DNA from: Bacteriovoracaceae bacterium
GTDB lineage: Bacteria > Bdellovibrionota > Bacteriovoracia > Bacteriovoracales > Bacteriovoracaceae
DNA: 23,286 nucleotides
Direction of reading: 5' to 3'
Assembly (NCBI GenBank): GCA_041586955.1
Contig: JBFGZE010000051.1
Coordinates: 1-23,286 of the forward strand
In this document: one piece after another, positions 16,420 to 23,286 of the stretch
Numbering within the stretch: the first letter of the stretch is position 1
How the letters are laid out: the number at the start of each line of letters is the position of its first letter
Program-made: the position numbers and the translations under genes
The notes under the pieces: model-generated
What the model was told of the DNA's origin: nothing
What the model saw: the letters and a program-made list of their open reading frames with translations, nothing else
The model's database searches: none

Positions 16420-17352
16420 TTAAATGGACTTTTTAGTGCGTTTCGTAACCACTGGATCTGAGTATGACTTTGCTTGTTTTTTAGTAACATTAAGTATTTG
16501 TGAGATTTTATCTGCTAAATCTTTGTGAAAGTCACCTTCTCTAAGCTTGATCTCCGTTATTTCACCTGATTTCAATTTTTGGAGATCCCTGAAAATAGCA
16601 TAAGTCGCCCCACTAGATCGGTGAGTAACCTTAAGAAGAATAATCGTTAAGAGTGAAGAGTTAAGAAAAACCACTATGACGAACAATAAATTGATCGTTT
16701 GAAAGCTCTCCGCATAATATGATTTGGATAGCACTGTAATAAAAATTGCATAGACAGAAATTGATAATAAGAATGAACATAAAAAGCTATAACATGCAAT
16801 GGATCTTTGAAAAGGAATTGCTAAAAGCTTTAATGATCTCTGACAGTTTTCATAAAAAAGTCTTTTCCCCTCAATTAGTAATGAGGCCAAAAATAATAGA
16901 AGTCCAAAAAATAGGATAAGGTCAACAAGATTCATATAAACATTCAAATTAAAAAATGGAAGTGAAAAATAGTCTGTGACTTTTCCTGTGAAAGTTCTTT
17001 CTATAATATTTCCTGAAGCTCCAAAGGTAATCATAATGAGTGCTGACTTTGACCAAGGAAACGACCTACGCCAAAGAGATAAGATAAAAACGATCATCAC
17101 AGTTAGAAAGTAAGCACCGAGAATAGAGAGGCTTACTCTTTTTACAAAGGGGGAGGTTTCGCTTAAAAAACCAAGAAATGATGAGTGGTTATAAACCAAC
17201 TTTACCTGGAGATAATCTCCAAACTTTAAAGAATAATTACCTAGTCTCATCGTAAGCTTAAGCAATAAGTCAGCAATTGAAATGACAACACAAATGACTA
17301 GAAGTGGTTTTGTTAAATCACGTGGAATATTGAGAGCGCTGGGGCCATTCAT
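16420..17352 (-). CDS. Signal peptidase II (LspA)-like domain fused to two TMs and a HAMP-like C-terminal domain
   Basis: DLLLK, YN.SSFLG, GASGNIIER, GKVTDY and MNLVD parallel the LspA motifs DQxTK, NxGxAF, GALGNLIDR, GxVxDF and FNxAD. Tail THRSSGATYAIFRDLQKLKSG...LREGDFHKDLA. Confidence 0.72.
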   Translation of the reverse strand: MNGPSALNIPRDLTKPLLVICVVISIADLLLKLTMRLGNYSLKFGDYLQVKLVYNHSSFLGFLSETSPFVKRVSLSILGAYFLTVMIVFILSLWRRSFPWSKSALIMITFGASGNIIERTFTGKVTDYFSLPFFNLNVYMNLVDLILFFGLLLFLASLLIEGKRLFYENCQRSLKLLAIPFQRSIACYSFLCSFLLSISVYAIFITVLSKSYYAESFQTINLLFVIVVFLNSSLLTIILLKVTHRSSGATYAIFRDLQKLKSGEITEIKLREGDFHKDLADKISQILNVTKKQAKSYSDPVVTKRTKKSI

Positions 17353-20700: not shown

Positions 20701-21210
20701 CTATTCTTTTTTTTTAAACTCAGCTTCGAATGTATTGCTATCCACTTGACGGGGCCCTCGATTGTCTTGCTCAAATGATTGGGATGAAGAGGAATAATAA
20801 GAGAAACCTCTGCCACTTCCAAAACTTGCAAATTTAACATTTCCTTTAGCAATGGCACGAGCAAAATAATTTTTCACTAATTGAGCAATGATATGCCTCG
20901 TTCCTGGAAACACCATGGAGATACCAAGTATATCTGTGAGAAAGCCAGGTGTTAAAAGTAAAAGCCCACCACCAAAAACTAAAAGAGCATGAATGAATTG
21001 GCTTGTCGGGACCGAGCCCTTTTGTAAGTCCTCTTGAATTTTACCTAGTATGGCGAGGCCTTGAGATCTTGCTAAACTTGCTCCTATAACGCCGGTGAGA
21101 AGAACAATAATGAGAGTATTTAAACCGCCAATTTGGCCGCCAATACTGAAGAGGAGATAGATTTCTAGCGCAGGGATAACAGTGAATAATAGAACTAATA
21201 TGGTAAACAT
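20701..21210 (-). CDS. fxsA: FxsA family membrane protein
   Basis: IPALEIYLL, TGVIGASLARSQG and GGLLLLTPGFLTDILG motifs. GAGG RBS. Confidence 0.93.
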   Translation of the reverse strand: MFTILVLLFTVIPALEIYLLFSIGGQIGGLNTLIIVLLTGVIGASLARSQGLAILGKIQEDLQKGSVPTSQFIHALLVFGGGLLLLTPGFLTDILGISMVFPGTRHIIAQLVKNYFARAIAKGNVKFASFGSGRGFSYYSSSSQSFEQDNRGPRQVDSNTFEAEFKKKE

Positions 21211-21750
21211 TTATGCCTCATTTTTCAGTTACTGTTAATATGGGCCCATTTTTGTCAGTGTCAAGATAGTCTGGTCTTAAGCATACTGAATATTGATAAA
21301 GATCTCACGAATTGAAGAGTGTGGAAATACTTTTTATTTAGCGAACGAAAAGATTTTTGAAAACCTCGAGCTGTTGATCCGTCAAAAATAGCTCTATCAG
21401 GGACCTTTAGCTTATGGATTGAAGCGAAATAATAATGACAATTAATACGAAGTTGTAAAGAAATTGAGAATCTTCTATATAAAGATGAGTCTACGGCGCG
21501 TAAATTAAGCATTTGATCAGGATCACCCGAGCGTTGGTCCAGAGCGTCTCGTCATAACTGTGGAAAAAATGGTTACTGCCTCGTTCTCTTTACCCTTTTC
21601 CATATTTTGTGGGCACATTTGTATCCAATTATTTTTATTGAGAAAGGGCGCTAGGTTGCTTGAATCAAAAAGAACAGCAAAACTTTATTTTTGGCCGACT
21701 AAATTAATACATCTTCTCATCTATAATTATTTAAAATAAGCGGAGGCAAT

Positions 21751-23286
21751 GTGAAAAATCTATTTTTATGTATTTTACTTGGTGCATTCTCCTGTGTGCC
21801 TGAACAAAAAGTTGGGGATAAGTTTGAAGTTTCTCTCTCTGAAGAGGGTGGAGCTTCGGTGACTATGACTGGCGCTCAGCTCTACACAATTAACTGTGCA
21901 AGCTGTCACGGGGCTTTAGAGTCTTCCTTGAAAAGGGGCTCCTCTTCTGCTTCTATTCTTCAAGCAGTCGAGAATGTTCCTGGAATGAGTCATTTAAATA
22001 AATTAACGGGTGTGCAGATTGATGCTATTGCTACAGCTCTTGCGACTACATCTTCAGAAACGGCATCTGCTCCGGCACCTGCTCCGGCACCTGCTCCGGC
22101 ACCAGCACCGGCACCAGCACCGGCACCAGCACCGGCACCAGCACCGGCACCGGCTCCGGCACCATCACCGGCACCATCACCGGCACCGGCACCAGCACCA
22201 GCACCAGCTGGTAATAGCTATCTTTCTTCGATTTTCATTCAATCGGGTAGTATGAATTCATATACAGATGCTGCAGGAGTTGTTTGGCAGTCTGATCGTT
22301 ATGTTTCTGGAGGTGAAATTGTTGATAGAGGGGCCTCTGTTGCAATTGAAAATACGAATAGTGATCGCTTATACCAAACAGAAAGATGGGGGCTGTCTCA
22401 GTATGAAGTTCCTGTTGAAAATGGAACATATACTGTAAAATTACACTTTGCTGAGACTAATAAATATTATGTTTCTGGCAAAAGAGTTTTTGGTGTTAAT
22501 GTTGAAAATAAGTCACTTGCAAACATTGATGTATTTAATGAAGCCGGTGGATTATACAAAGCTATCATTAAAACAATAAGTGAAGTTTCAGTAAATGACA
22601 GTAAGCTTAACATCAATTTTATCAGAAATCTTGATAATCCTATCATTAATGCTATTGAGATCCATAAGACGTCAGCGACTCCTCTAGACCCTAGTGTTAC
22701 GACGGAAGCACCGGCTCCAGCACCTGAAGTGGCGCCTACCGTCCCACAAAACCTAGTTTCATCAAATATTACTTCCAGTTCTGTTATGCTTTCTTTTAGT
22801 GCATCCAGTGATAGTGATGGTATATTAGGCTATAAGGTTTATAGAGATGGGTCGTATTTGGCAACAAGCACAACGACGACATATACAGACACAGGTCTTC
22901 GTGCTTCTACCACTTATACATATACAGTTAGAGCATTAGATAAAAAATCAAATGAGTCAGCTCTATCGAGTGCAGTAACAGTTAAGACTTTATCTGCTCC
23001 AGTTCAGTCAGGAGCTCTTGTACCTCCTTATCTACCATTGCCATTGTATTCAAAAGATAGTGTTTGGAATACGCCCATTCCATCAAATCCAGCAATCGAT
23101 CCAAACTCTGGTGCGATGGTTCAGGCATTGGTTAAGGCCACGGGGACTTATGATCCAATATTAAATATGCGTACATGGTCAGTTCCTGTGTATGTTGCGG
23201 ATGCAAAAACACCTCGCTATGATGTCAAAATTACTGGTTCCAATACTAAGTACGGATTTCAAGCGATGGTCAATGTTCCTATCCCT
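21751..23286 (+). CDS. Multidomain lipoprotein (5' part; runs off the window): cytochrome c + AP linker + malectin + Fn3 + uncharacterised domain
   Basis: GTG 21751 follows GGAGG, with 512 codons and no stop; absent from the ORF track. Lipobox-like GAFS-C15; GAQLYTINCASCHG...VPGM; malectin LYQTERWG...YTVKLHFAE...RVFGVNVE...INAIEI; Fn3 APTVPQNL...GYKVYRDG...YTDTGL...YTYTVRALD. Confidence 0.92.
   Translation, partial: MKNLFLCILLGAFSCVPEQKVGDKFEVSLSEEGGASVTMTGAQLYTINCASCHGALESSLKRGSSSASILQAVENVPGMSHLNKLTGVQIDAIATALATTSSETASAPAPAPAPAPAPAPAPAPAPAPAPAPAPAPAPSPAPSPAPAPAPAPAGNSYLSSIFIQSGSMNSYTDAAGVVWQSDRYVSGGEIVDRGASVAIENTNSDRLYQTERWGLSQYEVPVENGTYTVKLHFAETNKYYVSGKRVFGVNVENKSLANIDVFNEAGGLYKAIIKTISEVSVNDSKLNINFIRNLDNPIINAIEIHKTSATPLDPSVTTEAPAPAPEVAPTVPQNLVSSNITSSSVMLSFSASSDSDGILGYKVYRDGSYLATSTTTTYTDTGLRASTTYTYTVRALDKKSNESALSSAVTVKTLSAPVQSGALVPPYLPLPLYSKDSVWNTPIPSNPAIDPNSGAMVQALVKATGTYDPILNMRTWSVPVYVADAKTPRYDVKITGSNTKYGFQAMVNVPIP
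22069..22206 (+). repeat. Hexanucleotide-period repeat encoding 23 X-Pro dipeptides (21 AP, 2 SP)
   Basis: GCWCCD units (two are TCACCG), read in the frame of the 21751 ORF. Confidence 0.95.

Follow-up and report, generated by a model that had tools for sequence, protein, structure and literature searches.

The window analysed here is a stretch of 23,286 nucleotides (nt), the whole of contig C51 in the genome of a Bacteriovoracaceae bacterium (assembly GCA_041586955.1), which was assembled from a metagenome into 194 contigs (88% complete, 2% contamination). Its last gene, on the + strand from position 21751 to the contig end, encodes a predicted lipoprotein in which a single cytochrome c domain of the type found in the Geobacter protein PgcA stands next to the lipid anchor and is followed by a proline-rich tether, a malectin domain, an Fn3 (fibronectin type III) module and a C-terminal domain. 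We propose, with a probability of roughly 0.45, that the product is a lipid-anchored glycan-active protein whose haem serves as a one-electron relay beside the anchor and whose enzyme end, on its tether, can extend to its polymer. Among the data searched, the haem-tether-malectin-Fn3-C-terminal combination was found only in the window genome.

The open reading frame (ORF) at 21751-23286 (+) has 512 codons, begins with a GTG start codon that lies five bases downstream of a GGAGG (21742-21746), and is still open where the contig ends. Its parts, together with the DNA directly upstream, are as follows.

21559-21750, + strand: upstream region common to three genes that share the haem module (blastn and three-way alignment A4)
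21751-21795, + strand: predicted signal peptide ending in lipobox Cys15 (L-G-A-F-S-C), from a pattern match; invariant in three paralogues
21796-21864, + strand: post-lipobox leader V-P-E-x-K-x-G-x-K-F-E, kept in the alignment of the three paralogues
21865-22044, + strand: PgcA-type class I monohaem cytochrome c domain, residues ~39-98, assigned by phmmer against the PDB
22069-22206, + strand: proline-rich tether, residues 107-152 (46 amino acids [aa]), 74% G+C, from the sequence
22231-22656, + strand: malectin-type carbohydrate-binding domain (PF11721), residues 161-302, E value 8.5e-26, 91.3 bits against a cut-off of 23
22744-22977, + strand: fn3 domain (PF00041), residues 332-409, a spacer, E value 7.3e-9, 36.2 bits against a cut-off of 25
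22999-23286, + strand: first ~96 residues of a C-terminal domain of ~315 residues, the rest of which lies on contig C42 (L004:1-801)

The lipobox was called with a PROSITE-type pattern, which fits residues 1 to 15. The assignment as a lipoprotein draws on the hydrophobic signal peptide and on Cys15, and a Peptidase_A8 (signal peptidase II) gene is present in the same window (16423-17352). The malectin match spans positions 3 to 163 of the 163 in the Pfam profile. An earlier note on this DNA had recognised the malectin and Fn3 domains, both of which score above the Pfam cut-offs, and had seen a further domain begin after them, which it does at 22999. It had also described the spacer as (AP)23; the count of 23 dipeptides was right, but they are 21 Ala-Pro (AP) and 2 Ser-Pro (SP) rather than pure AP.

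The gene very probably continues onto contig C42, to a length of about 731 codons. The first 141 bases of C42 repeat the end of C51 exactly, this 141-mer is otherwise unique in the assembly, and the frame on C42 adds 219 residues before a stop, giving a full protein of ~731 aa and the extension of the ORF that the earlier note had called for. Contig ends sharing a 141-mer are frequent in the assembly (53 of 388 ends), as is expected from a de Bruijn graph assembler. For the analyses below, the C-terminal domain was studied through a complete paralogue on contig C33 (where the domain lies at L005:4992-5942, - strand), which is 96% identical to the part on C42.

Next, we looked into the haem domain. 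The CxxCH motif, C49-A-S-C-H53 (21895-21909), and the candidate axial Met79 (21985-21987) lie, like Cys15, exactly where the earlier note had placed them. It is the only CxxCH in the 512 aa, there is none in the C42 continuation, and the only four cysteines of the 512 aa are residues 7, 15, 49 and 52. A phmmer search with residues 16 to 110 against all PDB chains (177,635 sequences) returned two entries titled "Lipoprotein cytochrome c" (8QJ6, E value = 2.2e-10; 8QJG, E value = 8.5e-7), and the next matches were actinobacterial QcrC proteins, similar at the level of the heme motif only. Nash et al. 2024 (PMC11520253) assign 8QJ6 and 8QJG to the PgcA of Geobacter sulfurreducens, as its monohaem domains I and II. 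These domains are His/Met-ligated (His274/Met301 and His365/Met392) and joined by flexible (PT)x linkers, and the same paper proposes electron transfer by "tethered diffusion" (PMC11520253). The phmmer alignment sets Met79 opposite the Met in the 'GGMGF' stretch of 8QJ6 (Met301), 27 residues past the CxxCH His; the His-to-Met spacing in the window module is 26 versus 27 in PgcA domain I, and the alignment has a one-residue gap.

The earlier note had tied its haem assignment to conservation of CxxCH and Met among homologues and to the presence of maturation genes in the genome. In a three-way alignment, C49, C52, H53 and M79 were invariant in all three paralogous modules of the genome, the other two of which are 78% and 49% identical to that of the window. 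Genes of the CcsA type (PF01578, 112 bits) and the ResB type (PF05140, 37.5 bits) adjoin each other on contig C2, and several multihaem ORFs are also present, which indicates that the genome is able to make c-type cytochromes. Judged by its sequence, the module is a bona fide PgcA-type class I haem-binding domain at a lipid anchor; with its single CxxCH, the protein has a relative of the PgcA domain but is not a PgcA orthologue. Haem is predicted to be attached at Cys49 and Cys52, with His53 and Met79 as axial ligands, and the lipid-anchored location is a prediction of the same kind.

The haem domain belongs to a portable cassette, made up of ~190 nt of DNA upstream of the gene, the leader of the lipoprotein and the domain itself. 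BLAST and hidden Markov model (HMM) searches found exactly three copies in the genome, on contigs C51, C37 and C13, and what follows the cassette differs from copy to copy.

C51 (window gene): AP linker, malectin, Fn3 and the C-terminal domain
C37 (P0011, 567 aa, L007:5082-6785, + strand): linker, a relative of the C-terminal domain (30% identity), then another C-terminal region
C13 (725 aa, L008:4621-6798, + strand): linker, a middle region and a right-handed beta-helix

The beta-helix of the C13 protein matched a PHROG pectate-lyase family (7e-34). The leader "VPE.K.G.KFE" and the lipobox Cys are invariant across the three proteins. By blastn, the similarity at the DNA level covers window positions 21559-22115 for C37 (76% identity) and 21575-22031 for C13 (67%); it begins 176 to 192 nt upstream of the start codon and stops in the linker. 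The cassette stands likewise at the front of a pectate-lyase-like protein and of one that lacks malectin, so it is tied exclusively neither to malectin nor to a single catalytic domain. A region-limited homologue search with the haem module passed only P0011 of 100 candidates and missed the C13 paralogue, so that search was non-exhaustive.

The shared upstream DNA contains an invariant CATCTATAAT about 25 nt before the start codon, with TATAAT at 21722-21727. Further conserved blocks in alignment A4, beside CATCTATAAT, are CTGCCT, TTTTnTGGGCA and TTAAATCAAAAG. These blocks may mark a common promoter, perhaps with sites for a regulator. A promoter consensus scan listed no promoter-like site on the + strand of this region, and Rfam gave no family at an E value of ≤1 for positions 21200-21800. 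A sigma-54 reading of the TGGGCA block, made by eye, was dropped because the -12 element is not conserved in A4. Geobacter pgcA has a cyclic-dinucleotide riboswitch; no riboswitch of that kind was detected in the cassette upstream region. The C37 cassette gene is flanked on one side by a divergently transcribed pullulanase gene and on the other by a gene that encodes a periplasmic protein for sugar binding.

We then considered where the rest of the window gene comes from. From window position 22170 to the contig end, it is 92% identical at the nt level to the paralogue on C33 (P0001, 753 aa, L005:4989-7250, - strand), which has the same malectin-Fn3-C-terminal body behind a plain signal peptide. 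In place of the haem module, the C33 protein carries at its N-terminus the GH114-associated domain PF14741, which scores 24.1 bits (cut-off, 22). Since the cassette similarity ends in the linker and the body matches C33, the window gene is a mosaic with its seam in the AP-coding repeat. The haem-bearing window gene and the haem-less C33 paralogue, sharing one body, amount to a natural module swap and offer a clean experimental handle. A third, partial copy of the C-terminal domain occupies the last ~550 nt of C68 on the reverse strand (94% nt identity to C42 and 93% to C33) and runs off the contig end without assembled N-terminal modules; the genome may therefore hold a further member of the gene set there. 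Of seven sequencing runs listed by a search, none recorded as RNA, contigs of four were compared with the locus: two (X1 and X2), of one marine metagenome study that may be the source sample, contain it, and the other two (X3 and X4) gave nothing.

The C-terminal domain matched no family in Pfam, whose MltA and 3D profiles were included, and none in NCBIfam. Searched exhaustively with HMMER, 1.84 billion cluster representatives nevertheless yielded 5,505 relatives at an E value of ≤1e-3 and 649 at ≤1e-30, counted as representatives at 50% clustering. Many of them are secreted proteins of ~340 to 370 aa. Longer relatives (63 scanned) add CBM96, NPCBM, Laminin_G_3, malectin, PA14, GH114, GH26 and SLH domains, as well as LVIVD, CARDB, Calx-beta, RTX repeats, Ig-like, fn3 and esterase domains; in 29 of the 63, no added domain was recognised. 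An AlphaFold2 (AF2) model built from a 53-sequence alignment was confident (predicted local distance difference test [pLDDT] score, 93.6; predicted template modelling [pTM] score, 0.91). The most conserved polar residues, with the number of the 53 rows that keep them, are D108 (53), H181 (52), D251 (52), E173 (48), D203 (46) and D221 (46), and a 150-sequence alignment gave the same picture. A sequence search of the PDB yielded only chance-level rows for ribosomal S6 (E value ≥ 0.064), and in the ESM Atlas only unnamed clusters lay near, the nearest named cluster scoring 0.82, which is no more than a lead.

Relatives of this domain also occur in phages. The family phrog_17388, annotated 'minor tail protein', matches it at an E value of 4.5e-19, and tblastn found 70 phage records, of which 69 belong to Gordonia phages and one to a Microcystis phage. 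The Gordonia matches reached 1e-16 at 26 to 29% identity, and one Gordonia record is labelled 'glycosylhydrolase'. Among the predicted viral structures of BFVD there were five matches (E values of 4e-22 to 3e-8), one of them a phage protein in which a parallel beta-helix is present as well. Taken together, partner domains and phage-tail relatives suggest that the C-terminal domain engages, and probably cleaves, envelope or matrix glycans. With its size, its conserved Asp/His/Glu set and its lack of a Pfam or NCBIfam model, the family merits a characterisation of its own.

To see how far the architecture extends, we turned to relatives of its parts. No CxxCH occurred in the C-terminal domain's 149 best relatives (0 of 149) or in the 119 best of the C37 body (0 of 119), most of the latter being proteins from Burkholderiales that bear an uninformative label, "Atrophin-1 multi-domain protein". 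The haem module occurred in 5 of 150 other genomes of the same order, always in other proteins. Genome G134, from the same family, had 18 module matches, in lipoproteins where tandem monohaem domains alternate with lectin-like regions; other carriers in the order have 299-aa lipoproteins. The G134 proteins form another unusual pairing of haem and lectin modules in the same lineage: those on its contigs C147, C405 and C93 (L017, L021 and L022) are lipoproteins of >1000 aa with up to six PgcA-type monohaem domains among repeated lectin-like regions.

A scan of species genomes with the haem module gave 85 relatives at 75 loci. The best match (52% identity) came from a metagenome-assembled genome titled Pseudobdellovibrionaceae, where the module ends a 309-aa lipoprotein. 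Genes flanking the module on that contig encode proteins 45 to 60% identical to those of the window genome, versus 25 to 35% for contigs from other phyla, which is in keeping with a Bdellovibrio-like lineage without proving it. The other matches included PgcA-like multihaem proteins, pyrroloquinoline quinone (PQQ) dehydrogenases with a cytochrome domain, a cbb3-type oxidase fusion, and PKD and TSP3 proteins. Neither malectin nor the C-terminal family was seen in the species-genome relatives inspected (21 ORFs, with Pfam run on 8). One locus in a Cellvibrionaceae metagenome-assembled genome (L037:491-4189, + strand) encodes a protein of 1,233 aa that has an unannotated N-terminal region, long stretches of Ser, thrombospondin type 3 repeats by the dozen and, at its C-terminus, three monohaem domains; it may be related to extracellular redox proteins of the Cbp2D type. 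A scan of metagenome contigs with the module alignment added 19 relatives (best, 42% identity), and fusion to glycan modules was seen in 0 of the 4 inspected. P0004, an incomplete metagenome protein returned by a search with the whole ORF, combines Cytochrom_C, malectin and fn3 repeats, with a haem part of another type (peroxidase/RoxA-like). We found no characterised protein with the same architecture, in agreement with the earlier note, and no paper describing such a protein in the open-access full text.

The reading that we favour brings these observations together in one molecule. The haem domain would be a solvent-exposed one-electron relay, as PgcA domains I and II are, and we chose this mechanism because one-electron relay between tethered partners is the only characterised behaviour of PgcA-type domains. 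It would sit next to the membrane anchor, and the tether, which we estimate at ~14 nm when fully extended (46 residues at about 3 Å each), would let the enzyme end reach the polymer. The haem would be an autonomous redox site rather than a cofactor of the fused catalytic domain, and the working end, which would cleave glycan or at any rate engage it, would be the C-terminal domain. Glycan breakdown would in this way share a molecule with a redox site, probably under common regulation, and the organism would gain from putting a redox site on its glycan-working molecules. Both the electron transfer and a partner for it are inferred. A bolder proposal is that a promoter-leader-haem unit was grafted onto three unrelated glycan enzymes, that the membrane-proximal haem couples the electron flow of the cell to glycan breakdown in the periplasm or outside the cell, and that the C-terminal domain is a new, very large family of glycan-cleaving enzymes shared with phage tails. 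We consider it improbable; if true, it would define a class of 'redox-tethered' carbohydrate-active enzymes in which the haem drives or gates oxidative or reductive steps at the polymer or, alternatively, in which the polymer-bound enzyme acts as a reach-out electron outlet.

Several results weigh against the relay proposal, and we set them here beside the other explanations of the locus. The main rival takes the cassette to be mainly a module for targeting, anchoring or stabilising, which would provide promoter, export signal, lipid anchor and a compact folded 'foot' that perhaps docks on an envelope partner or doubles as a membrane-attached respiratory cytochrome, with a haem that has no role in glycan work. 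The cassette moves as one unit, upstream DNA and leader included, and the C33 paralogue has another N-terminus on the same body. Since no CxxCH was found among the 149 and 119 relatives counted above, the glycan enzymes work without haem. Moreover, no redox-dependent partner domain was seen in any of the three cassette polypeptides, and LPMO_10 (PF03067) had no match in the 88%-complete genome, AA10 being the only family of this kind sought, so that the relay has no identified electron donor or acceptor. On the other hand, even a module of 49% identity has retained every haem ligand, which argues for selection on haem binding, a costly property for a mere spacer, and PgcA-type domains are characterised electron carriers. 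We find a purely structural or targeting role doubtful on balance. The earlier note had leaned, with prey or host surfaces as a possible place of action, toward a haem that feeds electrons to a redox carbohydrate enzyme, which here would resemble a lytic polysaccharide monooxygenase (LPMO) while malectin holds the protein on its substrate. The precedent that it named is real: work on Cellvibrio Cbp2D describes carbohydrate-binding module (CBM) family CBM2, Fn3 and His/Met c-type cytochrome domains joined by flexible linkers, and an X183 domain (CjX183) that reduces two LPMOs in vitro (PMC8981238). The three related monohaem domains that end the Ser-rich Cellvibrionaceae protein with its thrombospondin type 3 repeats also fit this idea. 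The lack of an LPMO_10 match in the 88%-complete genome speaks against it, however, as do the X183 domains of Teredinibacter, which did not support LPMO activity and whose role in it their authors judged unlikely (PMC10916295). In addition, the window module is PgcA-like, no X183-named chain appeared among the 33 PDB matches at an E value of ≤10, and the same promiscuous cassette stands on a pectate-lyase-like protein and on one without a CBM. An LPMO feed is therefore unlikely to be its function.

Two further explanations question the locus itself. All the evidence comes from one metagenome-assembled genome, 88% complete as stated above, and no public contig bridges positions ~22010 to 22215; all of them break inside the 138-nt AP-coding repeat, so the haem-malectin junction has no independent confirmation. 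The haem cassette and the malectin-Fn3 body might then come from two genes misjoined in assembly, a smaller rival than the targeting foot, and it would be helped by the place of the junction within a 74% G+C repeat, by the existence of paralogues of both halves, and by the C68 body copy, which has no assembled N-terminus. Yet neither half is the same as another assembled copy (nt identity, 76% to C37 and 92% to C33), so the gene is not a join of the C37 and C33 contigs; the repeat is imperfect and shorter than the apparent 141-nt overlap length of the assembly; and a Pro-rich linker follows all three haem modules and precedes the C33 body, so that a natural join in the linker is to be expected. 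An assembly chimera is in our view very unlikely. The remaining explanation is that the cytochrome-like domain is degenerate, a spacer fold without haem. The domain scores below the Pfam gathering thresholds (Cytochrome_CBB3, 21.6 to 25.0 bits against 27; Cytochrom_C, 19.1 against 21.3), and here the earlier note's call of a monohaem cytochrome c was not borne out by Pfam; it was carried instead by the direct match to the solved PgcA domains. The AF2 model of the module alone was also of low confidence (pLDDT score, 55.8), as can be expected from three sequences and no cofactor, and its score was too low for a fold search. Intact and invariant CxxCH and Met, an E value of 2.2e-10 to a haem-bound crystal structure, and the presence of an export signal and maturation genes all stand against loss of the haem, and we give this explanation the least credence.

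The fold of the C-terminal domain adds to the points against the relay proposal on its enzyme side. Foldseek found nothing in the PDB at an E value of ≤1e-3, and its best rows were MltA (E value = 0.15). In a Foldseek-independent fold search, the top six bacterial rows were MltA-type lytic transglycosylases with weak Z values of 5.1 to 3.7, below the tool's own level for a shared fold. The MltA-like alignments cover 168 to 176 residues at a root mean square deviation of 5.3 to 6.3 Å, the best being 3czb (Z = 5.1; 5.4 Å over 174 residues), and they span domain residues ~23 to 298; further rows at Z values of 2 to 3 were expansins, kiwellin, cerato-platanin, YuiC and GH45. A profile-profile comparison (hhalign) with the genome's own MltA gave a probability of 1.5%. 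We treat an MltA-like double-psi beta-barrel fold, suggested by the predicted structure, as a lead only. MltA is an outer-membrane lipoprotein.

Around the gene, the window carries housekeeping genes; upstream lie genes for a PIG-L deacetylase and for a glucosamine-6-phosphate isomerase-like protein. The signal peptidase II ORF (16423-17352, - strand) encodes 310 aa, about twice the usual length of signal peptidase II; its Pfam match covers only residues 20 to 159, leaving an extra C-terminal region. Farther along contig C42, the protein of L004:7044-8000 (+ strand) resembles histone H1 in a long repeat rich in Lys and Ala (AKKTAKKVAKK...), behind which comes a C-terminal domain that contains Cys.

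Compared with known systems, the C-terminal domain alone has MltA-type lytic transglycosylases as its best yet weak structural matches, with no Pfam MltA or 3D match. It is homologous to the Gordonia phage minor tail proteins (phrog_17388; predicted-structure matches at E values of 4e-22 and 1.5e-21), which differ in being phage structural proteins of 700 to 1000 aa without haem, malectin or a lipid anchor. For the protein as a whole, the closest likeness is to PgcA, the triheme lipoprotein of G. sulfurreducens, in which a tether of proline-rich repeats comes after each small His/Met class I monohaem domain. PgcA carries three haem domains on its (PT)x tethers, lacks other modules and serves mineral reduction, whereas in the window protein a single haem domain by the anchor is linked through an (AP)n tether to carbohydrate-active modules, with no equivalent seen of the mineral-binding His/His domain III of PgcA. 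A second likeness is to Cbp2D and Cbp2E of Cellvibrio japonicus and to TERTU_3803 and TERTU_2913 of Teredinibacter turnerae, secreted proteins that combine CBMs, Fn3 and His/Met cytochrome c domains (X183/X132) through flexible linkers. The haem domains of these proteins are C-terminal, multiple and, to judge from the lack of an X183-named chain among the PDB matches, probably of another sequence type, no lipid anchor is present, and the proteins, which come from LPMO-rich cellulose degraders, also carry the presumed redox domains X158 and PQQ-like. By contrast, the window protein places a single N-terminal, lipid-anchored haem ahead of a non-redox, enzyme-like domain, in a genome where no LPMO was found. 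The theme of a cytochrome tethered to carbohydrate modules is already known from Cellvibrio and Teredinibacter (Cbp2D and TERTU_3803), and what is new beside these and PgcA is its PgcA-type, mosaic, portable-cassette form. The locus represents a different and simpler case of a tethered cytochrome, in which a single PgcA-type haem at a lipid anchor is combined with non-redox glycan modules and the same cassette is reused on three enzymes.

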